From the NCBI GenBank assembly GCA_045159875.1, contig CP067995.1:2125303-2157302 (forward strand): DNA of 32,000 nt, in the 5' to 3' direction. The position numbers were made by a program, and so were the translations under genes. The notes beneath the pieces are model-generated. The model did not search any database, was not told the origin of the DNA, and saw nothing but the letters and a program-made list of their open reading frames with translations. Numbering within the stretch: the first letter of the stretch is position 1; the number at the start of each line of letters is the position of its first letter. Source of the stretch: a cyanobacterium endosymbiont of Rhopalodia gibba. Lineage in GTDB: Bacteria > Cyanobacteriota > Cyanobacteriia > Cyanobacteriales > Microcystaceae. This document shows positions 1 to 31,573 of the stretch, in pieces.

Positions 1-1611
1 TATTTGATCTTTTATAGTAAATTATATAGCTAATAGACTAGATAATATTTCTCTAGAATTTAATGCAAATAAACTTTGTATGTAAAATTAAAAACATAGA
101 AAAATCTAATTTTTAATAATAAATTTGTAAAAATAATTATCATATATACAATAATATATATATATACAATAATATTTTTTTGAAAATAGAATTTCAATGA
201 AATAGATATTGTTTTTTGATTGATATCTATAGCGTTAAATGTTTAAAAAATTAGATTATATATTGAAAATATTTAACAAATATACATTGTTAAATATAAA
301 ATAAAATAGAAATGTACTCAACATAAACTCTTATTTATTGTGGTTAAACAAGTAGTAAATTTAATTAAAATAATGAGTTAATTGTTATAGATTTGTCTTT
401 GAGAGAAAAAGTTTTCTACTTTAAAATAAATCTTTACACACAAAATGTAATTTATTTATAAATAAATTTACATAAAAGTTAGCTTTTTTTAAAAAAAGCA
501 CATATTTTATATATTTAAATATTTTTAATTAAAATTTTATAAATATAAAAAAATGCGGCAACTCTTTAAAAAATAAAAACAATACTTAAGAGCATTAATT
601 AGACAATATATAAGTATGAATTTTAATATTTTAAATAGTTAACACTCAATTAAATTATTTTAACTAAAAGAAAAATAATTTAATATTTAATATTAGTATA
701 TTTAAAGAAATTAAAAGAGTAAGTAGAGAAATAATACGAACATAGAAATAGCAATGAATAGTAAAAGACTCAAAAAATAAATTTTTATTTTATTTTTTTA
801 AAAAAATTATATTTTTAGTTACTTGATATGAATAAAATTTTACTTTAAAAAATTAGATAAACAAATAAAGCTAAATTAGCAACATAAAGCCTAACTAATT
901 AGGCATAAAATACACTAATTTAAAACCAATTCAAATTATTTTTAATGGTAGTTACCAGGATTATTAAAGTTAGCTAATTAATATCAAAGAATATACATTA
1001 TTCCTAATATAGGAAAAATAAACGTTGAACTAAATAAATTACTGTCTATTTTTCTTGATAAACAAACCCAGGCATAGTAGAAGGTATTAACAATAAGTGA
1101 TTTATCAAAATAAATTTATTGATTCCATTTAATAACTTAATGAGTCATCTTCAGTAAAAAACTTAATTCTTGCCAACTTCGTTTAAGTCTTGATTATATT
1201 AATTTAATATAATTAAATTATATTTTTTTTATATATTTTCTATAAATTTTAGATTCTTAAAGTCTTTTAAGTGAACGATTGTTCTCTATTTCTAGACTTT
1301 CAACTGAATAGTATTTTTTATTTAAAATTATAGTTTTTTAGTCATCTTTGTCATTAAACTCAATATCTCATATGAACGATCACAGCCTAAATATTTAAAT
1401 TTAGCTATCGGAACTTGTATTTTGATAATTTCTTTTTTTTATTAGCTTTCTACTTTTTATTCTCAACGCTCAAGCGATCACTTTATGCTTTCACACACCT
1501 CATGTTTAAGTTTGTTTTTTAAAGTGTGACTCTTACATCCACAATCATATTTTTTAAAAAAAGTTCGACATAAGAATTTTATTTAGACAATCAGAAAAAA
1601 AATGAAGGTAT

Positions 1612-1648
1612 AAAACTCTAATTTTTTTGACGATAAAATTAGAGTTTT
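1612..1648. repeat. 14-bp perfect inverted repeat (aaaactctaatttt / aaaattagagtttt) with a 9-nt spacer
   Basis: Read directly: 1612-1625 is the reverse complement of 1635-1648. Confidence 0.7.
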
Positions 1649-2005
1649 GACCTTTAAACTTGGTATAAATCTCTTTATAACCTTGAAGACGTACTCAAAT
1701 GCAATTACTGAATCTATTAGTAGAACACCAGCTTTTTTTTGACCTTGAAGATAGATTAAGACAAGAACTTTATTACAGCCTTAACTATAAATATATTTTT
1801 TGTCCCTAGCAGGATATTATTTTTTTCTATTTTCATACAAAACTTCATACCATACAACAAAAAATTTCTTAAAATTCTATTTGTACATTCTACAAATTAC
1901 AGAATTTTTTTTATATAATTATTTTTATTTAAATATTTTAGAAACTAACTTCTTCCATAAATAGGGAATAACACCCATGCACCCGTTATCTGTCTCCTAC
2001 TCAAA

Positions 2006-2081
2006 ATTATAATGACCTGAAATAAATTTAACCTAAGATAAAAGAATTGGACTCTGATTTTCCATTTCAGGTCGTTATAAT
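2006..2081. repeat. 18-bp inverted repeat pair with 1 mismatch (attataatgacctgaaat / atttcaggtcgttataat) flanking a ~40-nt spacer
   Basis: Read directly: 2006-2023 against 2064-2081. The single mismatch would be a G-U pair in RNA. Confidence 0.65.
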
Positions 2082-3059
2082 CAGATCTCAAATTAGATTC
2101 TCTCGCATAATTAACTTTTACAAAATATATAAAAAATAGTTAACAACTGATCTTCAGTCTAAACATTAAAATTTAATTTGTAAACACTGAATCTAGAATT
2201 GTTATGCTAATCACAATTTAAAAGCATTTGCGTTCATAGTAAACTTCTTTACTTGCAGCCTATATTACTAATTAACTTAGTAGTTAATTGGACAAATTAC
2301 GTACAATATTTGTCTTGATCATTAGTAGCTATGACTCCTACATCAGAAATTCTAAAGCTTGTTCTTGATTTATTTTAACCGCTGCATCTTACATCTACTT
2401 TATTCTTAACTGTTACGTTAAGCTTAAATTGGTAAATTTCGACTTCATATAGACCTCTTAAAAAGAATCAAAACTTCATTCGTCCTACCCTAATAAAGTT
2501 AATCTCACAAAGGTATTTTTTTAACATAACGCAATGTAACTAAAGCTTAACAAAATACCTAGCTTATAGGTTTTCAACTGGACGAATTTTTAGTTTTGAC
2601 AGTTTTCTGTACTAAATTAATAACCTCTATGAGTTGATATAACACACACCTAACATTATTTTTAGCAAGATCTTTTTTGAAATTTTACTCAGCACGAACG
2701 AAATATTAAGTATATCTACTCGAAAAATCAGAAAATTTGAATAACTTTCTTTCAAATCATTTGACGAATACTGTAAAGAATCTGTAATAATCTAAGAGGG
2801 CAGTGTATTTTGAAGTCCCTATTCATTGGCAGAACTGTTCAAGATTGAAACAAAATCGTCAGTGATCACCCCATCAGCACAGTTAGAGGTAAGGCAATTT
2901 TGACAGTACAAGCCAATATTACTAACGACAATCTGGGTTTTCTGGAAATGCGTCTCCGGAAAATTTCTGGAGAGATTTTTACGTAAGTCATATTCGATAT
3001 GGCTGAGTCAGTGCTAAACCAATGAGTTTTTTCTAAACCAATCAATGGAGATATGTCCT

Positions 3060-4396: not shown

Positions 4397-4420
4397 CCCC
4401 CGTTTCTCACAAACGAGGGG
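4397..4420 (+). terminator. GC-containing hairpin about 30 nt after the rpiA stop (possible terminator, no U-run)
   Basis: cccc-cgttt / ctcac loop / aaacg-a-gggg gives a 9-bp stem with one bulged A. It is not followed by a T-run, so the terminator call is weak. Confidence 0.3.
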
Positions 4421-4982
4421 AGCTGTGCCGCTGAACTGTTCTTTAGTCTATGTCAAGACAATCACATTTAATAGAATTTGTGTGTCATGGAGGATAAACA
4501 GTAAAAATTAAAATTGTAAAAAAAAATATTTATCCCCGATTTGAGGACATCAAGGACCAAAAGATTTCCAATTTAGATAATAACTCCGTACATCTTGATA
4601 AAGATAAAAATTATAAACATCAAATAATCCTGTAATTGTGCAGCAAGTAGTGCTTATAGTCGATATTCCTTGAATCAATAGACTTAAATAGGATAGCTAT
4701 CATCAAAACCCTCAGCAGTTCTGCTGTTTATAGTTAACTAGGCTCAGTAACTCCAGCAAAAAACCGAAATATTTCATATCCTTATTAAGGATTCTGGCGG
4801 ATATTTATCAAGTAATAGGCTCGAACTTGGTTCATTGTCTGTCCGATGATATTTATAAAATCCAGTCTAATCTTGATAGAAGATTATGGTATAAAATCGA
4901 TTTTATCTGAGTTATTTGAACTTTATGGGAGATAGGAGAACTTTTTCATCGAGTATAGACCCTCCCTGTTCTGTGATCTCTG

Positions 4983-6345
4983 TTATTTTGAAGTACTTTC
5001 TGTTCTCACGGTCAACACTTGAGGGGGAGTAGCATCAGGGGAATAGAGAAAATTTGTCCTGACCAGTTTCCATAGTTTTGGAAAAATCGTTTGTTTAACA
5101 AGGGGTTTGCCAATTTTTTTATATGTTGAACGATATGAAAATAACGGGTTTGCCAAGTCTGCATTTGATCAAGATAAAAGATAACGGACGCTAATTGGTC
5201 CCCGAAAAAAAACTGTAAAGTAGGGAGATCAAGGAAACTTAACTCTCCAATTAGTTTATCCCGTTAAACGGGAGTTTGTAATGTCACTGTAACTGCTTGA
5301 GGGTTTACAGTGGGGTTATAAAAAGAGAGTGTCAGGCTATAGTGTATTACGTAATTACCATGAACTTGATAAGTGGTGTTAGGATAACAGACTAACATAG
5401 AAGAACTTTCCACTTGCTTGGTACCTAGAGTTTTTCCTTGTAGAGAGCTTAATCGCTAAGAGATAGCTGAAGCTTCAGGAGGAATGGCTAACCAATTTCC
5501 TCGATTTGTTCGTCTTCCTTGCCAGATAGAGCCTTGAGAGACACCTACCACTTGACTACCACTCGACTATAAATCATGGGTTCAATTCCAGGGGAAGTCA
5601 CCAAATTTCTATTTTGTAGAACTATTTTCCATTCTTGTGGAGTAAGTTGTCGTTCTTCTCCATTTTTATCAAAAGGAGCCAATTTCGCTAAACTTGCTAC
5701 ATAGACATTACCATTAGTATCAAAACGAACATGAGCAGACCGTCCGTTTAAAAGAAGATCTAGAGCTTTAACAAAAATAAGCAAATTCACTTTCGACTTT
5801 GCCTTCCATCAATGAGCAAATAAGGAGGAACAATGTTCTGGCAGTGACGGCGTAAAATATCCCTATCCCTCATTACACAACTTCCAGCCCCTGCATACAG
5901 AATTCCCAATTCCCAGGGAATCTTTGTCCTGAGACGGTAATTTGACAAATGGAGCATCAGTTCGACTAAGATAACTAGCTCCGTGGAGAATTTTCAGGTT
6001 AATCTGGGTCTTGTGGGTATTCTAGAGTAGAATCCTTAAGTATAGAGTACTTAAATTATTATAAACCTGGGCTTTTGCTATATGCTGGAAAAAATATCGA
6101 ATGTTCCAGCATATAGCAAATTTAAATGGGCATTTCTATAGGTTTTCCCTTGAGGAGAAAAGGTGTACAGTAAAATTCCTTCATTTAGCACTAATTTAGG
6201 ACTATTACTATTAAAAAACGGAATCCAATTTAACTTTCCAGGTAAAAGATAAACCTGGTGAGGTTGAACAGTCTCTTGAGAAGACTCAGAGGAAATCAGA
6301 GGAGTTTAGGCAAAGATTAAGAAAGGGAATTACTATTTTATGCAT
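4983..6345 (-). pseudogene. Decayed gene for a conserved cyanobacterial secreted protein (DUF3370-like; family name recalled from memory)
   Basis: Minus-strand pieces in shifting frames read collinearly. The start is ATG 6345 (MHKIVIPFLNLCLNSSDFL, then TGA). This is followed by HQVYLLPGKLNWIPFFNSNSPKLVLNEGILLYTFSPQGK (about 6150-6260) and by track ORF 5545-5790 (NGRSAHVRFDTNGNVYVASLAKLAP...). The next segment reads VVGVSQGSIWQGRTN. The C-terminus reads PDATPPQVLTVRTESTSK, ending at TAA 4983-4985. Multiple stops and frame changes separate the pieces. Confidence 0.6.
6074..6120. repeat. 17-bp perfect inverted repeat (tttgctatatgctggaa / ttccagcatatagcaaa) with a 13-nt spacer, inside the pseudogene
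   Basis: Read directly: 6074-6090 is the reverse complement of 6104-6120. One arm is coding-like sequence of the relic (NLLYAG); the other arm introduces a stop. Confidence 0.85.
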
Positions 6346-7102
6346 CCAAACTTTTCACGCCACTTTTTGAAGTAGGTGAAAGATTTATGGATAAATATTG
6401 TCTAACTGACGGTCAGATTTTTGGGTTTATCAGGACATTATCCTAAATAAAATTCTAACAATGCTTAAAATTACAATAAAGTTTTAACAGTAATTATTTA
6501 ATTAGGGAATTTTACAGTAGAGTGGCATTATCCTCATGATATCGCTCCAATGTCATCTTCTATCTTCTTAATAGTTATTAGTCAAGTTAACTCTAGACTA
6601 GGGTAGTAATGTCTTGATGACTATTTATTAACCGCTGATGGTTAAGTATTTCCAGTAGACTCAACTTATTGATCTACAACTAATGGATCGAGTAACTAGT
6701 ATCCCGACAAGGAAACCTTCAATCGGGACATTAGCCTCTGAAATTCCTAAATAAGTTTTAAAACTTAACTCTAACCAGACTTATCCACTTTTCTCTAGGA
6801 AATGGCTGACATTAGTAACTAATGAAGTTCTCTATCAACTTAGAGCTGATAGTCTAATGTTTAACTTAACCACATAGGGTTAACCAAGGTTCTATGTAAA
6901 GGGAAATATGGACCAAAGTATAGTCAATATCAGAGAAGTGATAAGACCATCTCCCGAAACTTATGGCTAAACTTGCGTAGCTAACGTTTTTACCTTAATA
7001 TATTTCTCTGGGAGCAAGAGAAATCTTTTTTGACGTTACCTCCTAAGAACTTGAATACCATTCAAAATTTATTAGACATTAGAGATTAACTTCCATTAGC
7101 TC

Positions 7103-7132
7103 TAATTTACACATATTAATATGTGTAAATTA
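7103..7132. repeat. 30-bp perfect palindrome (taatttacacatatt|aatatgtgtaaatta)
   Basis: Read directly, with the symmetry centre between 7117 and 7118. A partial third copy of ttaatatgtg follows at 7130-7139. Confidence 0.85.
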
Positions 7133-8432
7133 ATATGTGCAAGAAAGCATTTACGTCCCTAATAGACTTCTATTACTAGACTTTAATGATGCTTACTGGG
7201 GTAATCATCCATATGTTTAGCCCTTACTCAAACAATACGGTTCAATACGGTTATTCGACTGTATTCTTAGTGCTTATCAGGCAAATGGAAGATAAAAATA
7301 AACAAGCCGATTCAACCCGGCCACAACCTTGAAAAATGACTAACAATTTGTTAGTAACTATTGCTTTTTAAGACTATAAGTCATCTCCCTTATTTAAGGC
7401 AGTTGTCAGATAATTAACTATTTCGGCAAGTAATTAACTCTAAAAAAATCTTAAATAAGAATTTAAATTTCCTATCTGTTATTTTACCTATTCTAGAGAA
7501 AGAGCAGAACGTTCGTTAGTTTTAATTAGTAATTGCTTGGCTAAATTTATTTTTTTTCTTAATTTCAATAAACTCTTAATAGATGCCTAAGTTAAATTAA
7601 ATTCCAAATAACTAGTAAGATGTGTTTTTGTAAAAGCTGCCCAGTCGGTGATGTCTATGAAGCACAACCTGTAAAAATTTTGGTAATTTGTTTGATTTTA
7701 CTATACTTAGACGTCGAGCTTTCTGAGGGATTAATCAATCGAGACAGTCCATAATTGGAGTCTTTAAAAATTCAGTGAATTTGAGAAGTAGTAATGTTTA
7801 GATTAGGGGACAAGTATCTTCTTAGGTTATTAAAGAGAATCTTTAGTTTGTTATATTCCTCGTCCTATCTTCCATATGGTGATATTTATATCAGGAATTC
7901 TCACCTCAGTAAATTTGGTAGAACCACACTTATTAGAAAAGAATCGATAAAATGAATTCCTGTAAATTGTCCTTTGCGAGTAGGTAGAGAACAGTACAGT
8001 AACACCATTGCCTAGGGTATAAGCTCTACAAAACTATGATAGCCGACCAAATTGAAAAATACTTTTTCTTAATAGATAAGTATCTGTAATGTATAACTCC
8101 TTTTAAAGGTTCAATATCATGACCAATAACAAGCGATTACAATAGTCACAACTTTACCTATTTTTCAATAAAAATGGCATTTTTTTCTTAAAATGCTATC
8201 AATTAAAGAACAGAATAACAATGTTACTCAATTGATAAAAATCATCTAGATAACTAAAAAATTCAGTAAACTAGAAATGAGATTGTATGTCTATAGTACC
8301 AGACCTCAATAGATTTAGTTTCTCTTTTTCTGTTTAATTTTTTATCAGAAAATCAGCTTTCAAGTTTGATATTCAATTTTTTAGTCTAGCTAAAATATTT
8401 GTGTTATATTAGCCGGGATTAAAAAACAGTTA

Positions 8433-9773
8433 CTAAGCTAAATTACCTGTCAAACTAAACGCACGAGTTTCAGTAATTCTCACTTCAACAATTTGACCTT
8501 TTAATTGATTAATATTCCCCCTAAAAAAGGTTAAACGATTACCCTGAGTTCGCCCCATCACTTGGGTTTTATCTTGTGGGTTTTGTCCTTCTACTAATAC
8601 CTTTTCTATACGTCCTAAATACCGTTGTGATCTTTCAGCAGCTTTTTGTGCTACCAAATGATTGAGACGTTGTAGGCGCTCGCTCTTAACGTCTTCACTT
8701 AATTGATTCTCCCACAAGGCTGCAGATGTTCCAGGACGGGGAGAGTAAGCTGCTGTATTGAGTTGATCAAATCCAATATCAGCGACCAATTTTAAAGTCT
8801 TCTCGAATTGTTTTTCTGTTTCCCCAGGAAACCCCACAATAGCATCAGCACTAATGGAAGCGTCGGGCATAAGGTCCCGAATTTTAGAAATAATTCGGCG
8901 ATATTTCTCTTGGGTATAGCCACGTTTCATAGCTTTGAGTATTTCATTATCTCCTGACTGAAAGGGAATATGGAAGTGTTCGCATACCTTAGATAACTCT
9001 TGACAAGCAACTATTAAACGTTCGGTAAAATAACGAGGGTGACTTGTCGCAAAACGAATGCGCTCAATTCCAGGAACATCATGAACAGCATAAAGTAAAT
9101 CTGTTAGGGTGTGTCGATGTCTGCCTGTTTGTAGCACTCCCGGTAAGTCTCGTCCATAGGCATCAATGTTTTGTCCTAAGAGGGTAACTTCTTTGTATCC
9201 TTGTTTTCCTAAAACTTTTATCTCTGTTAGAATCTCTTCTGAAGTTCTCGACTGTTCCACACCACGTACAGTAGGAACCACACAATAAGTACAACGTTCA
9301 TTACAGCCATAGATAATATTAACCCAAGCAGTAATCATACTTTCTCTACGGGGTTTTGTAATATCTTCAACAATATAGATGGGTTCAGTTGCAACTACTT
9401 GATTCCCCTCAGATACCTGTTGTAGTAAATCTTCTAGACGATTAGCGTGTTGGGGTCCCATCACTAAGTCTAATTCAGGAACCCGACGTAGGATTTTTTG
9501 TCCTTCTTGCTGTGCGACACAACCAGCCACTACTAAGGTTAAACTGGGGTTTTGATGTTTTCGTTTGGCCTGTCTTCCTAAGTACGAATAGACTTTCTGT
9601 TCGGCATTATCCCGAATAGTACAAGTATTGTAGAGAACTAAATCAGCGTTGTCAGGATTTTCCGACCAAATGAAACCTATGTTTTCGAGAATACCTGCCA
9701 TGCGTTCTGAGTCAGCTTTGTTCATCTGACAGCCAAAGGTAGTTATGTGGTAGTAACGTTGGGAAGAAGCCAT
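8433..9773 (-). CDS. miaB: tRNA (N6-isopentenyl-adenosine-37) methylthiotransferase MiaB (radical SAM)
   Basis: N-terminal MTTase motif TFGCQMN, radical-SAM cluster motif CNERCTYC, and a C-terminal TRAM-like segment; 446 aa; ATG at 9771-9773. Confidence 0.93.
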
Positions 9774-10240
9774 AGCGTAGGTTGCAGACTAGATATTTTT
9801 TAGAAGAGTCCAGCTCTCCATTATAAGCTGTTCATCATTTACATGACTTGTCAGAGAAACTAAAATGGATGAAATTAACTAAAATCAGACAGAAAGTACA
9901 TCAAACTTTAAATTAACTTTCAGTGAAGAATATCAACAACTAAGACGGGAAAGATCGCAAATAGTGTAATAGATCTTAGAAAGAATCATTTTTGTATATA
10001 CGTTTAGAATTTCTTTAATTTATTATGGGCTTTTTCAGAGTCGGGGGTCTTAATCGACCCGCAATCTAAGCGGTACAAGCATTATTTTCAAGATTAACTA
10101 GTCCGGTTAAAAGATTGTTCTACTGTAGAGATTCTACTTTATGGATACATCAGTAACTGGGAGAAATTTAAGTTGTTTGTTGTCTGAGTAGCTAGTTGTG
10201 AGTGTTCCCGGAGAAAAGAAGAATTGCTTAAAAGCAAAAG

Positions 10241-10269
10241 TAGAGAGTAGCATAAGAGCCTACTCTCTA
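10241..10269 (-). terminator. Intrinsic terminator for the 10346-11041 gene
   Basis: A 10-bp perfect stem (tagagagtag / ctactctcta) closes a 9-nt loop. On the minus strand it is followed immediately by CTTTTGCTTTT. It lies 76 nt downstream of the stop at 10346. Confidence 0.6.
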
Positions 10270-10345
10270 GCAGATTAACCGAATCAAATAGGAAAAAAAG
10301 AATCACATAATCATAATTGAAATGCCCTTTTCCTGAAATCTGAGA

Positions 10346-11041
10346 TTATTCCACAACAGGAGGTAATTCCTCAACAGCAAGTTCAGGACCACCAATCCCT
10401 TCGGCAATACCGCCAGAAACACCAATTTTGAACTGGGTTAGGGTTGTAGCTGCTTGCTGTGCGTTTTCAGGCTTGAGGGTGAAAATTACGTTTCTAGTGG
10501 ACGCATTTTCGGGATCATGAGAAAGGAAAATCACCCGTTCTCCATTGACTTTCCCTACTAAGCTAGATTCGCTGAGTTGTGCTACCTGTTCGGGGGTAAC
10601 TAAACCAAAGGCGTAGGAAAGATTGGTTAAGCGAGCACTAACAGTCTGACAACGACTTTCAGGAATGTAAGCTCCATCAGGATGGCTGGAAGGCAGGGTT
10701 GCTGTCCAAACCATCATGGGCTGGCTATCCAGACCGTACTCAGCAGAAATATCCTCCGTGGTATAAACAGGGTAGTGATCAGGATCCATTGTTTCCCGTA
10801 CTGCTTTTTCCACAGTTACGTAGCTTCCATCCCCTTGAGCTTCACAGGTAAAAACAACCTTTTCTTGAATATGGGGAATCACTGCGCGGTTGCTGTCCCA
10901 ATCTACACTAGAAGGAAATCCTTCTGAGACCATGTTGTACTGGGGATATTTAGGATGAGCTTGGGCTCCAGAAATTGTGCTTAGTAAACCAAGAGTGGCT
11001 AATGCACTTGCCGCAACAACTTGAACTGAATTGTTAACCAT
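10346..11041 (-). CDS. Secreted protein with an N-terminal signal peptide, COP23-like (circadian oscillating protein family; the family call is tentative)
   Basis: The signal peptide is MVNNSVQVVAASALATLGLLSTISGAQA. Segments VVFTCEAQGDGSYVTV, RCQTVSARLTNL and GKVNGERVIF resemble the COP23 pattern as I remember it. The track start at 11053 is a TTG. The ATG at 11039-11041 has GGAGG 5 nt upstream, so I use 11041. Confidence 0.8.
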   Translation of the reverse strand: MVNNSVQVVAASALATLGLLSTISGAQAHPKYPQYNMVSEGFPSSVDWDSNRAVIPHIQEKVVFTCEAQGDGSYVTVEKAVRETMDPDHYPVYTTEDISAEYGLDSQPMMVWTATLPSSHPDGAYIPESRCQTVSARLTNLSYAFGLVTPEQVAQLSESSLVGKVNGERVIFLSHDPENASTRNVIFTLKPENAQQAATTLTQFKIGVSGGIAEGIGGPELAVEELPPVVE

Positions 11042-11451
11042 TTTGACCTCCAAAGAGTGTAAGAAGCAGTGATTAATAGCTACTGCTATATTTTTATAGA
11101 ACTTCCCATTAGCTAAAAGGCCTCAGGATAGTTCCACTTCCTCACCTCACACATGACATCGTACAGGTCGTCAATCGTCGCGCTTTAACCTACGCGCCTT
11201 GTCTATAACTATAGACATCCTAACCTTATCATTATGTTCAAAGCTTACAGTTATAGCATTATTTTACAATTGAGTTAAGCAACTAAAATTTTCCTTCTTG
11301 AATCAATTACTATAACTAATTAAGTAATCCAAGATCGGATGCTAGTGCACAGAAAATAGATCACTTAAAAAATTAATATTGACTTTAAAATTCAAGAGAA
11401 AGAAGATAGAATTTAGAAGTTAAATTGATTTCAAGCTGTTAGAGAAATCTT

Positions 11452-22991: not shown

Positions 22992-24386
22992 ATGGATCGC
23001 CAATCTACTCCCTCTAAGCCACCAATGAGTCAGGGGTTTGGCCCTATTCTGCAGAACCCGCGGTTTTTAACCCTTTGGGTTGGACAAATTTTCTCTCAAT
23101 TGGCTGACAAAGTTTATCTGGTTTTGATGATTGCCTTAATTGCTGGTCACTTTCAAGGAGACAATCAACCTATTAGTGGTTGGGTATCAGCGATTATGAT
23201 TGCTTTTACTATTCCGGCGGTTTTGTTCGGTTCCTTTGCTGGGGTTTATATAGATCGGTGGTCAAAAAAAGGGGTGTTAGTTATCTCTAATTTTGTACGA
23301 GGAGTATTAGTTTTTGTCATTCCTCCCCTAATCTGGTTATCCCAAGATAAAACCTTAGCATTACCTGTCTCTTGGCTTCCCGTCTGGTTACGACAGTGGC
23401 AATTCCAAGTTCAAGATAACTTTTTTATTCCTTTGGGATTTTTATTTATACTAACGTTAACTTTTGTAGATTCAACTATTACCCAGTTTTTTGCTCCAGC
23501 AGAACAAGTTACTATTCCCCTGATTGTTGAACGCCGTCATCTGCTTTCGGCTAATTCTCTTTTCACTACTACCATGATGGCTACGACTATTATCGGGTTT
23601 GCCATTGGAGATCCTTTATTAGAATTGGCTGCAACGTTAGCTAAATTCGTGGGATTATCTTGGGAACTCGGTAAATCTTTAGTTGTTGCCTTATCTTATC
23701 TGTTAGCGGGTTTTGTTTTAATTTTTTTAAGGACAGGAGAAAAACGAGAACACTACGAAAAAGAACGTCCCCATATATTTGAAGATATTCGAGATGGTCT
23801 TCATTATCTCAATAATAATCATCGAGTTCGCAACGCTTTAATTCAACTGGTAATTCTTTTTTGTATTTTTGCAGCCTTGTCGGTATTAGCTGTTAGGATG
23901 GCTGAAACTATTCCAGGGTTAAAAGCTGAACAATTCGGCTTTTTATTGGCTTTTGGAGGCTTAGGAATGGCTTTTGGAGCAGGTATTTTAGGTAACTGGG
24001 GTCAACATTTTAGTAAAAATCGATTAGGATTGTGGGGATCGTTGGGAATGGCAGTTTCCTTGGTGGGATTATCTTTGTCTATAGACAATCTATGGTTAAC
24101 GCTGTTGATGACCACATTTTTAGGATTATTTGCAGCTTTTGTCGGAGTTCCGATGCAAACAATGATTCAATCAGAAACGCCTGTTGACATGAGGGGTAAG
24201 GTGTTTGGTTTACAAAATAATGCAGTTAATATTGCTTTGTCTTTACCTTTAGCTTTAGCTGGTATTGCAGAAACTTTAGTAGGCTTGAAACCTGTCTTAC
24301 TTGCTTTAGCTGGATTAGCAGTCGCAGGGGGAATTCTCACAGGGAATACAGGAAAAAATAGATCTGGTAATCAAAGATCAGAGTAA
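22992..24386 (+). CDS. MFS-type transporter (substrate unknown)
   Basis: 464 aa with about 12 hydrophobic spans. The N-terminus NPRFLTLWVGQIFSQLADKVY and the loop motif GVYIDRWSKK are typical of MFS transporters. Confidence 0.85.
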   Translation: MDRQSTPSKPPMSQGFGPILQNPRFLTLWVGQIFSQLADKVYLVLMIALIAGHFQGDNQPISGWVSAIMIAFTIPAVLFGSFAGVYIDRWSKKGVLVISNFVRGVLVFVIPPLIWLSQDKTLALPVSWLPVWLRQWQFQVQDNFFIPLGFLFILTLTFVDSTITQFFAPAEQVTIPLIVERRHLLSANSLFTTTMMATTIIGFAIGDPLLELAATLAKFVGLSWELGKSLVVALSYLLAGFVLIFLRTGEKREHYEKERPHIFEDIRDGLHYLNNNHRVRNALIQLVILFCIFAALSVLAVRMAETIPGLKAEQFGFLLAFGGLGMAFGAGILGNWGQHFSKNRLGLWGSLGMAVSLVGLSLSIDNLWLTLLMTTFLGLFAAFVGVPMQTMIQSETPVDMRGKVFGLQNNAVNIALSLPLALAGIAETLVGLKPVLLALAGLAVAGGILTGNTGKNRSGNQRSE

Positions 24387-24456
24387 TGACTAATTTTAAA
24401 GAAAAAAATAAATCATAACTTCTTTATTATATTTCTCCTTTAGTCACGGATTATCA

Positions 24457-24482
24457 GTAATTTTTTTTATAAAAAAAATTAC
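24457..24482. repeat. 26-bp perfect palindrome gtaatttttttt-at-aaaaaaaattac
   Basis: Read directly, with the symmetry centre between 24469 and 24470. It lies 71 nt downstream of the MFS stop. Confidence 0.85.
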
Positions 24483-25234
24483 AAAATTAATTTTAAACTT
24501 AAGTATAGAATTATATGATATGGTCCTCCAGATCATGTATTTAGGCTATCTAATATTTCTACTTTTTTCCCCTGTCAATAGATTTTAATTCATCTACCGT
24601 TACTATTTATGAATCAAGAAACATTTTTTTAATGACTTTTTATCAGGTTTATACAAACTTATATGGCTCTTATAGACTAGCTATGATAACATCATTATAA
24701 ATAAAACTTGAAAGATATACTTTGCAAATTTTAGAGAATGCGATTCATGATAATGGTTTCGAAAGTTATTGTCTATTAATTCATCACACTGAATCTAAAA
24801 GAGTAATGATTATTTTATTTGTCTCATAAATTTAAAGTAGTAAAAAATAAGGTTAAGTATGCATTGTATCTGTCTTTAGGATAGATTCTAAATTAGAGAA
24901 AACATTAAAAGTAAAATATTATTATAATCTAACAGAGTAGATTTTACCAGAAAAAGAAAACTGAGTTTATTTCTTGTTATATAAAAAAATAATCTAGTAA
25001 AATATCGAAAAATACAAAGTTTATACGATTAAGACAGAAATCATGAAATTAAAAATAAATATTTCTAATTTCAGTTTTGAGAGCAACAATTTTAATTTAT
25101 CTTTGGAAAGTGTCGATAATAGAGCAACTAAGGAGACTGCAAAAAGCTATAAATTTTTTTATAATTACTGATTACAAAAAACTAGGGATGGAATAAATTT
25201 ATGAGCCATAAAGAAATATGAATAACTTAACACA

Positions 25235-25327
25235 TAGTTCTGTCTAAATTAGTAATTTTTTTAACAGTTTACTAATTAAAAATCTTTTTAAAGTAAGTAA
25301 AAAAGTTATCTAATCTAGACAGAACTA
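25235..25327. repeat. 18-bp inverted repeat pair with 1 mismatch (tagttctgtctaaattag / ctaatctagacagaacta) around a 57-nt AT-rich spacer
   Basis: Read directly: 25235-25252 against 25310-25327. Confidence 0.7.
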
Positions 25328-25436
25328 ACTTTAGATAATTTTGGAAAATCTTGGGACAATTAAGAATATCTAAACTAGAGATAAGAGAGGATACTTCTAT
25401 AATTAAATAGACCCTTATAAATTAAGTTATTAAAAC

Positions 25437-28400
25437 TTAATCTACCCCTTCAATTTTATCTTCAAGGTCTTCATATAATTTTTGTAACCTTTCTAAGTTT
25501 TCTGCTGAAGTTTCCTAGTAACCTCGTCCATTTACTTCTAACAAAGTAGATACTATCTTACGGAAAGAATTAGGGTTGAAATTAATCAGACGTTTACACA
25601 TTTTCTTGTCTTTAATCAAAGTTGTATTCACATTTTCATAAACCCAATTGTCTACTGCATCAGAAGTGGCAGACCATCCCATTGTATTAACTAAACGCTT
25701 AGAAAGTTCTCTAACTCCTTCATAACCATGAGATAACATTCCTTCGTACTATTTAGGGTTTAATAATTTAGTACGTGTGTCTAAAGGTACAGTTTCAGAG
25801 AGGGTACGAACTTGTACATTGGCAGTGGTTGGATCCGCAATATATGAAGCAGGTTTTTTACCATCTTCCCGTAAACTGGAGACAACTTTCGTAGGATCAG
25901 AATCAAAATAATGTGAGATATCCGTTAAACTTATTTCTGATGAATCTAAGTTTTTGAAAGTAGCATCAGCAGTTTTTAACGCAAATTCAAATATCTTGTG
26001 GTTATCTTTCATTACTCCTGGGTTATCGGAGTTAAACGCAAAACTTTTCCGATTTAAGTACATATTTCACAATTCTTTTTCTTCTTCCCAACTGCTATTT
26101 TCTACCGCTAAGTTTATATTAGAAGAATAGGAGCCAGAAGCATTAGAAAATATACGGGTTGCTGCTTCACGGAGATTGAATCCCAGTTTATCTGCTTGCT
26201 CGAAAGCGTGTTTACGAACATAGTTTATCTCAACAGGTTCGTTCGCTTCTGCTGCCATTTTAACTGCTTGATCCAATAAATTCATTTGGTTAATAAATAA
26301 GTTACGAAAGACACCAGAACAGTTGACTACTACATCAATACGCGGTCCTCCTAATTCTTCGAGAGGAATTAACTCTAATTTCTTAACCCTTCCTAACGCA
26401 TCTGGAACAGGCTTAACTCCTACCATCCACATGATTTGTGCCAGGGATTCGCCGTAAGTTTTGATGTTGTCGATTCCCCATAACACACAGGCGATAGTTT
26501 CGGGATAATTTCCTCCGGTTTCATTTTTTTGACGTGCTAATAACTTATCTACAACTATTCTAGCGGCTCTAACTGCTTCTAAGGTAGGAATGGATTGGGG
26601 ATCTAACGCATGGATGTTTTTACCTGTCGGCAAAACGTTTGGGTTACGAATAGGATCCCCTCCAGGGACAGGCAAGACATATTCCCCTTCTAATGCTTTA
26701 AGCAATCCTTCTAATTCATTATTAGCACAAAGCTTTTCTAAACAACATTTTAGATATTCAAATAAAGATTTAAACGCTTCTTGATCGACATTTTTATATC
26801 CTAATTGATGTAAAGTTTCTACCCAAGGAACTTTTCTATTCATTTTAAGAAAACTCAGTTTAGAAACAAAAGAAATTCCTCCATCTGCATCTATTTGTGC
26901 TTTAACTAAAGAACTAACGTTTTCTAAAATACCGCGGTCACCGTCTTGATAAATTTCCTCAATATTTCGTCCTAAAGTGTTAGCAATAATACGAGGTCAA
27001 GAGATAATTTCTTCTTCTTTACGATCCAAAGAAGCAATATTGACTAAGGTTGCAATCGCTTCTTCTGCGGTGGGAGGTTTACCTAATGATGTGAAGTCCA
27101 CATGGTAATAAACGGGACTCAATTTCTATCAACTTTCGATAAGTAGAACCGACAATATTATCGCGTTGTTCTGATATCATGTCTTTAGCATCGGTATTAG
27201 GTAATTTGATATCCTGATCTAAATTAACTAAGTGACATTTATCCATGATGGTGTTAACAATGGCAATTCCTCGACCCTCCTCTTTGAGGGTTGGATAAGA
27301 AGCAATTAACTCGCTCAATTCTTTTAACCCTCTGTATAACCCTGCATTCTCAGCAGGAGGAGTTAAATAAGATATGGTTTCTGCATAACTACGACGCTTA
27401 GCAATAGTTGCCTCACTAGGATTATTCGCTGCATAATAATACAGATTGGGAATCATGCCAATTAGAGTATTAGGATAACATTCTCCTGACATTCCCATCT
27501 GTTTTCCTGGCATAAATTCCAACGATCCATGGGTTCCTAAATGTCATACTGCGTCCGCTTTCCAAACTTGGGTTAAATAGGTGTAATAAGCTGCAAATCC
27601 ATGATGGGGACTAGCAGATCTTGAAAAGAGTAACCGCATAGGATCTCCTTCATAACCAAAAGTTGGTTGAACTCCAATAAAAACGTTACCAAACTGTTTT
27701 CCGTAGATTAATAAATTCTGTCCGTCACTGTTTAAATTTCCAGGAGGAAGACCCCAGTTTTCCTCTAACCGAACTAAATAGGGAGTCAACTGTTCGTATT
27801 GTTCAACGGACATCCGATAGGCTATATTTAACTCTGGAGAGGCATATTCTGCTTGTGCATTGTGGATCACTGATGGAAGCAGTGCTTTGGGAGAATCAGG
27901 TAGGTTTTCTACCTTGTAACCATTGCTTTTTAATGCAGTCATTACTTCATAAATAGACCCGAAGACATTCAACTATGCGGCGGTCCCTACGTTCCCCTTA
28001 TCAGGGGGAAAACTAAACACAGTAATAGCCACCCTTTTCTCCCGTTTAGGGTTTTTTCCTAGATTAGCCCATTTTATCGTTCGTTGGGCGACCATTTCGA
28101 TGCGATCTTGCAGTTCAATCGCTCTTCCCGTATTTGCGTCCCGTCCTGAGAGGATAATAGGTTCAATCGCGCCGTCTAATTCAGGAATAGCTATTTGTAA
28201 CGCTACCTGGACAGGATGTAATCCTAGATCACTTTCTTCCCATTCTTGGGTAGTTTGAAACACAAAGGGCAACGCACACACACATATAAGGACGGTTGAG
28301 ACGTTTTAATGATTCGATTGCTTTTGGATGGTCTTGACGAGCTGGACCCCCAACTAAAGCAAAACCTGTCAAAGAAACCACTGCATCGACAATAGTAATT

Positions 28401-29393
28401 GTTTCTCCCCCTTTACTGTAATCTAAGAAATAAGCATCTACCGGTTTAGAAAAGTCTAATCCTCCTGCAAACACAGGAAGCACCCGCGCTCCCATAGCTT
28501 CTAATTCCTGTACTGTAGATAGCTACATAGTGAGCATCATCCCCAGTGACCAGATGGTTCAATAGTAGAATCAATCCAATACAGGGGGCTGAAAGGTCTT
28601 TTAGACTATCAGAAATATCGATTCTACTATTGAACCATCTTAAACAAGAAGGGACATCCTTAAACATTTCCATCGATAAAGGATGCCAAATTCCCATGTC
28701 AGGATAGACTACCGGATCCTGATAGTTAACAGTTTTATCTTCGAGAAGATCTGGATAGGAATATTTATGGGCTAACATTACCAGAAAATTTTCGAGATTT
28801 TCCGAAGATCCCCCCAACCAATATTGGAAACTTAGCATAAAATTGCGAGTATCTTGAGCTTTTTCAACCGGAAGATACTTCAAAATTTGAGGTAAAGTCC
28901 GCAACAGTTTTAACATGGCATCTTGAAACCCTGTGCCGGAATTTTCCTTCCGCTTCCGCATAAATTGGGCGATTGCGTTCTTAGACTGTCCTAACTGGGC
29001 TATAGAAAAACTGCCTAATTTGTTTAAGCGCATTACCTGGGGCATTGAAGAGAAAATCACCACGGCATCTAAATTATCCCAATGGGGTTCCACCGCGTCT
29101 ACGACTTGATCCGCTAAGTCTTCGATAAAAATTAAAGAGGCAATAAATAAATTAGTATCTGCTACTTTACGCTTAAATTCTTCATATTTTTCAGGATTTC
29201 TTAGTTATTCAATTAGATAACCACTAATTTCTATGGCTAATTTAGGGTTATTTTTATTGATTGCTTCAACGGCTGCAGAAAGAGAACTTTGATACTGTGG
29301 CTCCAAAACGACATAGACCACCTTTAACAAAGAACGACCATTAATTGCTTCTAGAACGATATGGCGAATGTTGGACTTTACACGAGTAAACAT
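25437..29393 (-). pseudogene. chlH: Magnesium chelatase subunit H (ChlH) pseudogene: near full length, with 7 in-frame stops and 3 frameshifts
   Basis: Eight track ORFs (29393-29205, 29093-28446, 28495-28229, 28281-27973, 27972-27544, 27522-27079, 26843-26067, 26063-25749, 25739-25515) plus the tail to TAA 25437-25439 join collinearly into about 1318 codons. The N-terminus is MFTRVKSNIRHIV...AIEISGYLIE and the C-terminus is [32 protein letters not shown]. Stops lie at 29205-07 TAA, 27973-75 TAG, 27544-46 TGA, 26997-99 TGA, 26067-69 TGA, 25749-51 TAG and 25515-17 TAG. Frameshifts lie at 28508-28517, 28275-28284 and 27084. Confidence 0.95.
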
Positions 29394-29726
29394 CTATTAC
29401 AGTACTCCCTAATTTTTTGATGATCTAAAGGCTGTAAACTCTTAATCAGAGTTAGCAAAAAATCTTACAAAACTCTATATGTGTTTCTACCAAAAATAGC
29501 TATTATATGAGCAGTTTTTCGACTATTTAACATAATTTTTAAAGAAGCATACCATGATTTTTTACAAAAAGAAACATACTAACGATAGTAGGTTTTCTTT
29601 TTCTTGTTTATAAAAGTTAATTTTACATTCATTGGCGAATTTACTATTGACTGAATCTGCTTACATTCAGATACCATCATTGCTATAATGCTCAAAAAAC
29701 AAATTAAATGAGATTGGAGACTAATC

Positions 29727-29768
29727 ATTTAAAATAACAAGTAAAATTTTTTACTTGTTATTTTAAAT
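29727..29768. repeat. 42-bp palindrome: two perfect 20-bp arms (atttaaaataacaagtaaaa / ttttacttgttattttaaat) around a 2-nt centre
   Basis: Verified base by base: positions i and j pair whenever i+j=59495, from 29727/29768 inward to 29746/29749. Confidence 0.9.
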
Positions 29769-30265
29769 AAAAAGATTATGTTGACTCAGCAAAATACTAA
29801 GAGTTAAAACGTATGAGGTATAATAATGATGAAGAAGGAACAGTACCATGAATTAAGAAAACGGTTAAAGTTCATCTATTAATATTTTTAGAATACTCAA
29901 GTACAACTCATCAGCTTTAGTTGATCATGATTAACTTATAGTTAGTTATTATGTCGAGTGAAAAAAATCGCTGAAATGTAAAAACTCTTAAGTGCCTCTC
30001 ATAATGCTAATTTAGCCGAAAAAAGAGTTAAAAATCTAGCAAATACTCACACAGTATTTTTGACATTTGTGTTTGCAAGTCTGCGATGTGCTTAGTCTAA
30101 CTTGAAAACTGTAATTTTTTTTTATTGGATTCGATCTAACTTTTTACCTACAAGTGATCACTAATAGCCATAGCATTAAGGTTAAGACAATTCATAAAAA
30201 ATGATAAGATCTAATCTAGTATAAACTTCACTGCCTATTTACACACTTAAAGGAAAAGCTACTTC

Positions 30266-31573
30266 ATGATTCACGATATTTTCATGCCTGCACTCAGTTC
30301 CACCATGACCGAGGGAAAAATCGTCTCCTGGGCGAAGTCTCCAGGGGATAAAGTGAAAAAAGGAGAAACTGTTGTTGTAGTTGAATCAGATAAAGCGGAT
30401 ATGGATGTAGAATCTTTTTATGAGGGTTATCTAGCCGCCATTTTGGTAGAGGCTGGACAAGAAGCCCCCGTAGGAAAAGCAATAGCCCTTGTGGCAGAGA
30501 CCAAAGCAGAAATTGCTCAAGCACAGCAAAAAGATCTCTCAGGCTCAGAACAAACTCTTCAAGGAACTACCCAAACTATAGTCTCAATCTCCACTCTTGA
30601 ACCAACTACCATACCAACAACAGCTTTTTCGACGAATGCTTCGAAAACCGATGAAAGTCGTGGCACTAATGGCCGCATAATTGCCTCACCACGGGCAAAG
30701 AAACTAGCTAAACAATTAGGCATTGAGCTCAAAACTATTCAGGGCAGTGGCCCCTATGGACGCATTATTGCAGAAGATGTAGAACGTACCACGGAGAAAC
30801 CCACAACTGCAACTATTACTCCTACTTCATCTTCTGCATCTTCTGCATCTCAACCGACTACCACTCCAAGTACGTCGCCGACTTCTGTACCTGTTATCTC
30901 AGGAGAAACTGTTCCCCTTACTATCCTACAAAAAGCAGTAGTACAAAATATGGTAGCGACGGTACAAGTTCCTACCTATCATGTAAGTTATACGATAACT
31001 ACCGATAGTTTAGATAAACTCTATAAGATAATTAAATCTAAAGGAGTAACTATGACGGTTTTATTAGCAAAAGCAGTGGCTGTCACTCTTCAAAAACATC
31101 CTTTAGTTAACGCTAGTTACAGCGACCAAGGAATCCACTATAATAGGTCAGTTAACGTTGCTTTAGCAGTAGCAATGCCTGATGGGGGACTGATTACTCC
31201 TGTTCTACAAAATGTTGAGCAAATCGATATTTATTCTCTATCTCGTACTTGGAAAGATTTAGTCGAACGCGCTAGAAAGAAACAATTGCAACCCCAAGAA
31301 TATAAAAACGGAACTATTACTATCTCAAATTTAGGAATGTTTGGGGTAGACTTTTTCGATGCAATTTTACCTCCAGGACAAGGAGCAATTTTAGCCGTTG
31401 GTAAATCTCGTCCCCAAATAGTAGTAACTCCAGAAGGATTCACTGGAGTAAAACGTCAGATGACAGTAAATATCACTTGTGATCATCGAGTGATTTATGG
31501 GGCCCATGCAGCTGCGTTTTTGCAAGATTTAGCTTGGTTAATCGAAACCGATGTTCAATTACTAACGATGTGA
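30266..31573 (+). CDS. pdhC: Dihydrolipoamide acetyltransferase, E2 component of the pyruvate dehydrogenase complex
   Basis: Lipoyl domain with VVESDKADMDVE. Thr/Ser/Pro-rich linkers. E3-binding domain IIASPRAKKLAKQLGIELKTIQGSGPYGRIIAEDV. Catalytic CDHRVIYGAHAAAFL. 435 aa. Confidence 0.93.
   Translation: MIHDIFMPALSSTMTEGKIVSWAKSPGDKVKKGETVVVVESDKADMDVESFYEGYLAAILVEAGQEAPVGKAIALVAETKAEIAQAQQKDLSGSEQTLQGTTQTIVSISTLEPTTIPTTAFSTNASKTDESRGTNGRIIASPRAKKLAKQLGIELKTIQGSGPYGRIIAEDVERTTEKPTTATITPTSSSASSASQPTTTPSTSPTSVPVISGETVPLTILQKAVVQNMVATVQVPTYHVSYTITTDSLDKLYKIIKSKGVTMTVLLAKAVAVTLQKHPLVNASYSDQGIHYNRSVNVALAVAMPDGGLITPVLQNVEQIDIYSLSRTWKDLVERARKKQLQPQEYKNGTITISNLGMFGVDFFDAILPPGQGAILAVGKSRPQIVVTPEGFTGVKRQMTVNITCDHRVIYGAHAAAFLQDLAWLIETDVQLLTM

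Follow-up and report, generated by a model that had tools for sequence, protein, structure and literature searches.

The window analysed here is a 32,000-nucleotide stretch of CP067995, the chromosome of the spheroid body, a cyanobacterial endosymbiont, of the diatom Rhopalodia gibba 17Bon1 (Abresch et al. 2024, PMC11131595). Three-frame translation and alignment revealed that the minus strand between positions 29393 and 25437 is occupied by a full-length, collinear and interrupted chlH gene (Mg-chelatase H; Table 1). The reading runs through frame 0 (29393–28449), frame 1 (28522–28232), frame 2 (28305–27082) and again frame 0 (27125–25440). Nine ORF fragments along this path match the Pfam families DUF3479 (model positions 1–159) and CobN-Mg_chel (2–1082 of 1090) in order, with a best E-value of 1e-93. 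After repair, the conceptual translation passes the NCBIfam equivalogs for ChlH (NF009140, 2116 bits, cut-off 1300; TIGR02025, 1763, cut-off 829). A cobN gene was considered and rejected, every CobN model remaining under its cut-off (best 633 versus 1468). Nucleotide identity to the intact chlH of the R. gibberula symbiont (RgSB) is 91.8% over 3948 nt, and hence the resemblance is far above chance; in a scan of genome contigs, free-living cyanobacteria were among the matches listed, the best being Crocosphaera watsonii (84%). The original prediction, made from the letters of the window, had named the gene chlH and joined its fragments into a near full-length product, and on both counts it was right. 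Scans of the window for tRNAs and Rfam families gave no matches.

To place the lesions, R. gibba chlH was aligned by codon to the intact genes of four other spheroid-body sequences and to that of Crocosphaera. There are 11 in total—seven premature stops, three frameshifts and one deletion—and the length of the locus is accounted for by them (3990+4+4+1-42 = 3957). Three-frame translation and the codon alignment find the seven stops exactly where they had been predicted, and all five residue contexts quoted for them are correct; against the intact orthologues, the lesion positions are confirmed codon by codon. The three predicted frameshifts all exist, the first lying at or just past the edge of the interval proposed for it (28508–28517). 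Overlooked in the original prediction was the 42-bp in-frame deletion. Codon 63, the site of the first stop, is GAA also in the symbionts of R. yunnanensis and R. inflata, and the CTAT insertion is missing from all seven orthologous sequences compared. An uninterrupted ORF for a ChlH of ~1330 aa is absent from the R. gibba copy; with translation halting at codon 63, a ChlH protein is predicted to be impossible.

Table 1. Features of the chlH locus and its intact neighbours (window coordinates).
Feature	Position	Strand	Description
MFS transporter XHU95454.1	22992–24386	+	intact; convergent with chlH; synteny anchor
chlH unitary pseudogene	25437–29393	-	ATG 29393–29391, native TAA 25439–25437; locus tag JJP05_06920
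Premature stop 1	29205–29207	-	codon 63, E63 GAA>TAA; GAA in all five orthologues
Frameshift 1	28519–28522	-	+4 bp CTAT, local tandem duplication; placement ambiguous, ~28515–28522
Frameshift 2	28281–28284	-	+4 bp TGTG, expanded (TG)n run
Premature stop 2	27973–27975	-	codon 471, Y471 TAT>TAG
Premature stop 3	27544–27546	-	codon 614, L614 TTA>TGA
Frameshift 3	27084	-	+1 bp (A); frame 0 regained after two +4 insertions
Premature stop 4	26997–26999	-	codon 796, L796 TTA>TGA
In-frame deletion, 42 bp (14 codons)	junction ~26913/26914	-	~ELLQQITLATRETV in the R. gibberula-symbiont protein
Premature stop 5	26067–26069	-	codon 1120, Q1120 CAA/CAG>TGA, two substitutions needed
Premature stop 6	25749–25751	-	codon 1226, W1226 TGG>TAG
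Premature stop 7	25515–25517	-	codon 1304, W1304 TGG>TAG
2-oxo acid dehydrogenase E2 XHU95455.1	30266–31573	+	intact; divergent from chlH; synteny anchor

Lesions of this kind can, hypothetically, arise in the computer rather than in the organism, where the gene would be intact. The reference was built from MiSeq and MinION reads (PMC11131595), and repeat-like sequence surrounds two of the three frameshifts (a TG run in one case, a CTA duplication in the other), as might be expected of Nanopore or hybrid-assembly errors. However, seven of the 11 lesions are base substitutions rather than indels, and the genes adjoining chlH in the window are intact. Moreover, the Logan assemblies of an Illumina DNA run (SRR26035201, short reads only) and of an RNA-seq run (SRR26379928) are each 100% identical to the reference across the whole pseudogene, and a contig from an unrelated environmental metagenome (ERZ28594680) is broken into the same ORF fragments, at 99.87% identity and with zero gaps. 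A 258-aa, ATG-initiated ORF that is still present within the locus is indexed in 35 sample blocks. With independent DNA, RNA-seq and environmental assemblies in agreement, the lesions are genuine; an artefactual origin is effectively refuted, and the call of a pseudogene stands.

The locus was next compared with its counterparts in related genomes. Intact syntenic orthologues of 1329–1330 aa are found in the symbionts of R. gibberula (RGRSB_0428), Epithemia clementina (EcSB) and R. musculus, and on one further contig (L089); the R. gibba copy is 91–92% identical to them at the nucleotide level. (Searching proteins with the 258-aa fragment yielded none longer than 450 aa; the intact orthologues came from protein-cluster membership.) All four genomes with an intact chlH share the gene order atp operon-DeoC-RecO-MFS-chlH-E2. 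In R. gibba, the proteins of the MFS and E2 genes carry consecutive accessions, and thus no protein-coding CDS has been deposited between them. Disabling lesions at the ancestral locus, relative to intact orthologues, make the R. gibba copy a unitary pseudogene.

Might the gene work in spite of its lesions? It could do so by read-through of the stops together with programmed frameshifts, or as separate ChlH fragments with a non-catalytic role such as regulatory binding. The survival of the 258-aa ORF, the presence of the locus in assemblies of many RNA-seq libraries, and the intact chlD and chlI genes of the R. gibba symbiont genome (PMC12903740) are in keeping with such activity. Against it, the stops comprise TAA, TAG and TGA and replace five types of ancestral residue (E, Y, L, Q and W), and therefore a single reassignment cannot account for them; termination is normal in the other genes of the window, and an alternative genetic code or recoding was rejected. 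Otherwise invariant residues have been replaced (HFGTHG>HLGTHG, LPGPGG>LPVPGG and WGTDN>WGIDN), close relatives carry different, unshared lesions, and the substitution pattern of the terminal branch (see below) indicates that constraint has been lost along the sequence. Continued function is, accordingly, highly improbable. The evidence for transcription consists of RNA-seq-derived contigs, in which DNA carry-over is possible, and which suggest that the locus is transcribed; one of them (window positions 24504–29753) covers just the pseudogene and its flanks. No expression values for JJP05_06920 are given in the supplement of PMC11131595, and a scan of positions 24300–30300 gave promoter-like sites at the expected frequency (23 versus 22.6) and one terminator-like site (2.8 expected). 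A transcribed locus would fit a young pseudogene, and a role at the level of RNA or of fragments is a formal possibility.

The age of the pseudogene was investigated by way of its substitutions. Over the whole R. gibba lineage, omega (dN/dS) is 0.18–0.20, compared with 0.083 for RgSB and 0.064 for EcSB. On the stem shared with the R. inflata symbiont, 38 synonymous and seven non-synonymous changes give an omega of 0.046 and a codon-position spectrum of 10, 5 and 40, while on the R. gibba terminal branch nine synonymous and 21 non-synonymous changes give an omega of ~0.60 and a flat spectrum of 17, 12 and 15 (counts on both branches are small and cover the 5' 2 kb only). The two spectra differ (p=5e-4), and those of the RgSB (9, 4, 41) and EcSB (11, 3, 47) branches are weighted towards third positions. 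Between lineages, the intact spheroid-body copies show an omega of ~0.06–0.09 over a dS of 0.28–0.49. These results indicate that the intact copies are under purifying selection, and that R. gibba chlH was constrained until approximately its split from the symbionts of R. yunnanensis and R. inflata, and then drifted. In line with this, the flanking intergenic DNA is only 69–79% identical to RgSB, versus 91.8% within the pseudogene, and the earlier description of chlH as recently killed is upheld. The neutral distance of R. gibba chlH, estimated from its 5' half, is 1.6–2.1%. This corresponds to 64–85 substitutions and to 2.9–3.8 expected stops, with a probability of seven or more of 0.02–0.09; the seven observed are at the high end for this distance, and so the neutral phase may somewhat exceed 1.6–2.1%.

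The two closest relatives have decayed along their own paths. Within nt 1–2053, the symbionts of R. yunnanensis and R. inflata share no lesion with R. gibba and instead carry private stops at codons 82, 173 and 239, and 116, 143 and 608, respectively. This polarisation covers the 5' part of the gene, as the assemblies of both relatives break at runs of N in the 3' 1.9 kb; a lesion common to the three symbionts could sit there. Substitutions and small indels within contiguous sequence were the only differences counted. Apparent 3' deletions in both relatives were dismissed (each truncation point adjoins a short run of N), as was a 381-bp insertion, which is itself a run of N.

How does the death of chlH relate to the loss of photosynthesis? 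According to published orthologue tables, all PSI and PSII genes of the R. gibba symbiont are absent or broken, psbI possibly excepted; chlM, acsF, chlB, chlN and bciB are pseudogenes, and a second chlH paralogue is absent (PMC12903740, including Table S2D). The decay of the chlorophyll pathway differs among spheroid bodies (PMC5638926). The original prediction had taken the loss of chlH to imply either a loss of photosynthesis or a second copy elsewhere; the former has indeed occurred, and the latter is not borne out by those tables. As a sign of that loss, however, chlH had been read in reverse order: the common ancestor of the spheroid bodies had already lost photosynthesis, long before chlH died, and several sister lineages still keep chlH intact and under constraint. 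Since the photosystem genes have disappeared from all spheroid bodies, the death of chlH came late and does not itself attest to the loss of photosynthesis.

This order of events raises a further alternative, suggested in PMC5638926: chlH may have had no function in any spheroid body from the loss of photosynthesis onwards, the RgSB and EcSB copies being pseudogenes as yet free of lesions, and R. gibba merely the first to be hit. Functional death would then be old, with only the lesions recent. Nakayama and Inagaki reported that dN is raised in the Chl-a genes of RgSB, and argued for a loosened constraint on the pathway (PMC5638926). Also in keeping with an old death, every spheroid body has broken bciB and chlP genes, photosystem apoproteins to which chlorophyll could bind are missing, and pairwise omega among the intact spheroid-body chlH genes (0.09) is roughly double the value for free-living pairs (0.03–0.05). 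Yet a twofold rise is what the reduced effective population size of endosymbionts would be expected to produce, and the omega of the intact copies is far from neutral over the distances given above, with the RgSB and EcSB spectra concurring. A 4-kb ORF, at a nonsense probability of ~5.5% per substitution, would hardly have remained open without selection in four lineages so far diverged, and the stem towards R. gibba was itself constrained. We consider this early loss of function to be unlikely.

If selection did maintain the gene, then for what? Tentatively, chlH and the Mg branch to chlorophyllide may have been kept for a non-photosynthetic function in those spheroid bodies that retain chlH, and given up very recently in the R. 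gibba, R. yunnanensis and R. inflata clade. The suggestion follows from an omega of 0.05–0.09 across a dS of ~0.3–0.5, accumulated after the photosystems were lost. In Synechocystis, ChlH is reported to act as an anti-sigma factor toward SigE, which controls sugar catabolism; such a role is a candidate function for the kept chlH. A tetrapyrrole regulatory signal is another candidate, speculated upon in PMC12903740. If a function of this kind exists, the three symbionts are a natural knock-out series for identifying it, one that includes a full-length, possibly transcribed pseudogene.

Taken together, we put the probability at roughly 95% that the locus is the syntenic chlH orthologue of the R. 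gibba spheroid body, now a non-functional unitary pseudogene produced by ordinary neutral decay. The decay took place in an obligate, non-photosynthetic, N2-fixing endosymbiont, and in several steps: (i) strong purifying selection on chlH persisted long after the photosystems were lost, (ii) constraint was let go at about the time that the symbionts of R. gibba, R. yunnanensis and R. inflata diverged, and (iii) each of the three then gained its own, unshared nonsense and frameshift mutations. In R. gibba, the decay comes to ~2% neutral divergence, with the seven nonsense codons, two 4-bp insertions by slippage or duplication, the 1-bp insertion and the 42-bp deletion. The most likely cause of the release, we infer, is the loss of a residual use of the Mg branch together with the death of chlM, acsF, chlB, chlN and chlL in the genome of the R. 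gibba symbiont.

On its own, the pseudogene matters little; as an example of gene decay in an endosymbiont it is ordinary and already known, and that spheroid bodies have lost chlorophyll synthesis is textbook knowledge for the system. The published genome of the R. gibba symbiont contains 148 predicted pseudogenes, with chlH one among them. The locus has modest value as a dated marker, in that purifying selection on chlH outlasted photosynthesis by a long time, with the release of constraint placed near the base of the R. gibba/R. yunnanensis/R. inflata symbiont clade and independent decay thereafter. It also sharpens a question that others have raised, namely why a nearly complete, constrained chlorophyll pathway is retained in some spheroid bodies that no longer photosynthesise.

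Both the pseudogene and the status of its pathway are already known (PMC12903740, PMC5638926). The locus is the annotated JJP05_06920 of CP067995: the window encodes XHU95450, XHU95454 and XHU95455, Table S2D of PMC12903740 lists RaSB chlH as (JJP05-06920), i.e., as a pseudogene, and the order of tags in that table (atpA 06895, atpG 06900, ... chlH 06920) agrees with the gene order in the window. To this the present analysis adds a map of the individual lesions and the 42-bp deletion; it also dates when constraint was released and confirms the pseudogene in independent assemblies. With functional ChlH/BchH (Synechocystis ChlH, PDB 4ZHJ; NF009140/TIGR02025) the R. gibba copy shares full-length collinear homology and both the DUF3479 and CobN-Mg_chel domains, but its reading frame has been destroyed, residues in conserved motifs have changed, and coding constraint has disappeared from the terminal branch. 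The closest parallels are the spheroid bodies of Epithemia turgida (ETSB_0465) and E. adnata (KPI85_06480), where chlH is also a pseudogene (Nakayama et al. 2014; PMC5638926): the same gene was lost from the same kind of non-photosynthetic endosymbiont, in a stepwise, lineage-specific erosion of the Mg branch. Those copies, known here from the literature rather than from their sequences, represent independent events. Damage is heavier in other lineages—a 3.1-Mb spheroid-body-like genome (L083) has a chlH with a 1.9-kb internal deletion—whereas R. gibba chlH retains its full length and an identity of 92% to the intact orthologues.

Three-frame translation of window 25400–29450 revealed that the minus strand encodes a single, collinear protein (see table). 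Nine ORF fragments (62, 215, 88, 102, 132, 139, 258, 104 and 74 aa) match, in strict order, Pfam DUF3479 and then CobN-Mg_chel (profile positions 2–1082 of 1090). The repaired conceptual translation scores 2116 bits against NF009140, the NCBIfam ChlH equivalog (cut-off 1300), and 1763 against TIGR02025 (cut-off 829). As it falls below every NCBIfam CobN cut-off, cobN was rejected; judged by these profile scores, the pseudogene at 25437–29393 is chlH (Mg-chelatase subunit H), not cobN.

Reading frame and lesions of the chlH pseudogene (window coordinates; all on the minus strand)
Feature	Position	Codon(s)	Change
Start ATG	29393–29391		
Frame 0 segment	29393–28449		
Frame 1 segment	28522–28232		
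Frame 2 segment	28305–27082		
Frame 0 segment	27125–25440		
Terminal TAA	25439–25437		
Stop 1	29205–07	63	GAA (E) to TAA
Stop 2	27973–75	471	TAT (Y) to TAG
Stop 3	27544–46	614	TTA (L) to TGA
Stop 4	26997–99	796	TTA (L) to TGA
Stop 5	26067–69	1120	CAA/CAG (Q) to TGA, two changes
Stop 6	25749–51	1226	TGG (W) to TAG
Stop 7	25515–17	1304	TGG (W) to TAG
Frameshift 1	28519–22		+4 bp, CTAT insertion
Frameshift 2	28281–84		+4 bp, TGTG expansion
Frameshift 3	27084		+1 bp, A
In-frame deletion	junction ~26913/26914	~824–837	42 bp (14 codons)

At 90% identity, the 258-aa fragment clusters with complete ChlH proteins (1329–1330 aa) from four sources: the symbionts of R. gibberula (BBA79010.1), E. clementina (WGT67919.1) and R. 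musculus, and one Logan contig. All four orthologous DNA sequences show MFS-chlH-E2 synteny and an uninterrupted chlH ORF (6001–9990 in loci L086, L087 and L088; ending at 9993 in L089). The ancestral state of each stop was obtained by nucleotide alignment with these intact orthologues, projected onto codons. The original prediction, of a recently killed chlH with seven stops and three frameshifts, placed all seven stops exactly, as the three-frame translation confirms, but did not list the 42 bp deletion; the codons removed are kept in all intact orthologues. The three insertions sum to +9 bp, and frame 0 is regained. The TGA at codon 1120 differs from its ancestor at two positions and therefore the codon was hit twice (e.g., CAA>TAA>TGA), a small sign of continued substitution after inactivation. 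Codon alignment also reveals substitutions of otherwise invariant residues (HFGTHG>HLGTHG, LPGPGG>LPVPGG, WGTDN>WGIDN and FRDLF>FRNLF).

The identical nine-fragment ORF set was called on Logan assemblies of SRR26035201 (Illumina DNA) and SRR26379928 (RNA-seq), whose contigs match the window at 100% identity for 10.8 kb and 5.25 kb, respectively, and 35 sample blocks index the 258-aa fragment. An environmental metagenome contig from a separate project (ENA ERZ28594680) shows this fragmentation too and is 99.87% identical to the pseudogene (5 mismatches, 0 gaps). Because independent DNA, RNA-seq and metagenome assemblies agree, assembly or homopolymer error—a concern raised with the original prediction—is for practical purposes excluded, and the lesions are real. 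The RNA-seq-derived contig (SRR26379928_12259) corresponds to window 24504–29753; it covers the pseudogene with ~360 nt of upstream and ~930 nt of downstream flank but stops short of both neighbouring genes. The locus may thus still give rise to a transcript of its own, although the contig may alternatively be a product of DNA carry-over.

The pseudogene is already known. The AtpA, MFS transporter and E2 acyltransferase of the window exactly match XHU95450.1, XHU95454.1 and XHU95455.1; the accessions of the two proteins flanking chlH (MFS and E2) are consecutive, and therefore no protein has been deposited from the intervening 5.9 kb. The R. gibba 17Bon1 spheroid body (SB) chromosome, CP067995, is a MiSeq and MinION assembly with 148 predicted pseudogenes (Abresch et al. 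2024, PMC11131595), and Table S2D of PMC12903740 gives its chlH orthologue as "(JJP05-06920)", the parentheses denoting a pseudogene. Since the published tag order also agrees with the window (atpA 06895, atpG 06900, then DeoC, RecO, MFS and chlH), the finding has been annotated and published before. That the Chl pathway has decayed to different degrees in different SBs was likewise described in 2017 (PMC5638926) and 2026 (PMC12903740). The present analysis adds the exact lesion map, including the 42 bp deletion, the exclusion of artefact, and a relative dating of when constraint was lost.

Lineage-specific substitutions across the whole of chlH gave omega values of 0.18–0.20 for the R. gibba lineage (codon positions 24, 14, 62), 0.083 for the R. 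gibberula symbiont (9, 4, 41) and 0.064 for the E. clementina symbiont (11, 3, 47). The R. gibba branch was then split, for nt 1–2052 only, using the closer SBs of R. yunnanensis (CP191493) and R. inflata (CP191494), whose 5' chlH sequence shares 96.1% and 94.9% identity, respectively, with that of R. gibba. The branch common to R. gibba and R. inflata carries 38 synonymous and 7 non-synonymous changes (omega 0.046; 10, 5, 40), as against 9 and 21 on the R. gibba terminal branch (omega 0.60; 17, 12, 15) and 13 and 34 on that of R. inflata (omega 0.68; 24, 14, 23). Over this region, the R. gibba terminal codon-position spectrum does not differ from uniform (p=0.65), and does differ from that of the stem (p=5e-4). 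As an internal control, R. gibba and R. gibberula SBs are 91.8% identical in the pseudogene, versus 78.7% (upstream) and ~69% (downstream) in flanking intergenic DNA. Given the stem omega and this control, chlH remained under constraint for most of the interval following the split of these two SBs; the R. gibba drift phase amounts to ~1.6–2.1% divergence, or ~1/8 of the terminal dS of 0.13. Omega values, codon spectra and flanking DNA thus bear out a recent inactivation. In simulations on the inferred ancestor, 5.5% of point changes create a stop: 64–85 neutral substitutions yield 2.9–3.8 expected stops (P(≥7) = 0.02–0.09), and 120 yield 5.3. Seven observed stops are on the high side, though still in keeping with neutral decay over a period slightly longer than our estimate.

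All five lesions that R. gibba carries in chlH nt 1–2053 are missing from the SBs of R. yunnanensis and R. inflata. Stops occur at L82>TGA, Y173>TAA and L239>TGA in the former and at S116>TGA, Q143>TAA and W608>TAG in the latter, and both carry an insertion at a common site, nt 1095 (7 nt and 5 nt, respectively; a CGTCC(TT) duplication). Two scenarios are compatible with this pattern: release of constraint in the common ancestor, by an event lying beyond the 5' half of the ORF, or separate hits in each of the three lineages shortly after they diverged. In both assemblies, the chlH remnant ends exactly at a break marked by a short N run; N runs (1–2986 nt) are frequent in these "chromosome" records and also split housekeeping genes (atpA = 179 + 201 aa); the apparent truncations are therefore unreliable as gene loss, and we claim no deletion of the 3' half. 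A more distant, SB-like genome (ENA ERZ25042306, 3.097-Mb contig) has the same synteny and a chlH remnant at 9433–11400, in which a 1.9-kb internal deletion removes nt 224–2124 and ORFs of 92 and 432 aa survive. This is another independent loss, more advanced than that in R. gibba.

Elsewhere in the window, an 81-aa minus-strand ORF (5545–5790) matches only positions 155–239 of the 422-position Pfam DUF3370 and is probably another gene relic; it lies within a gene-poor stretch (4400–8400). Window 1–3000 is extremely AT-rich (G+C 15.5% in kb 1, 24–30% in kb 2–3), contains no ORF of at least 80 aa, and has the appearance of endosymbiont DNA that is non-coding and heavily degraded.

SBs are known not to photosynthesise, and a published orthologue table lists nearly all PSI and PSII genes as absent or broken in every SB (PMC12903740). 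For the Mg branch of the R. gibba SB, the same source gives chlD, chlI and ycf54 as intact, chlH, chlM, acsF, chlB, chlN, bciB and lpor as pseudogenes or broken, and chlL and a second chlH paralogue as absent. Of the two alternatives originally drawn from the loss of chlH, a second gene copy falls away on this listing, while loss of photosynthesis is correct but in the reverse of the implied order: photosynthesis disappeared long before chlH did. The original observation is confirmed, and its interpretation supported with these caveats. Pairwise chlH omega is 0.087–0.091 among intact SB copies (dS 0.28–0.49) and 0.033–0.053 among free-living pairs; intact copies in several non-photosynthetic SBs are under clear purifying selection (omega 0.06–0.09). 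Such constraint is at odds with a 2017 proposal in which these Chl genes, though free of visible lesions, are "already pseudogenised" (PMC5638926), and a functionless chlH in SBs with intact copies is hard to reconcile with these values. Rather, purifying selection supports the question, posed in PMC12903740, as to why SBs maintain a pathway that seems to serve no purpose.
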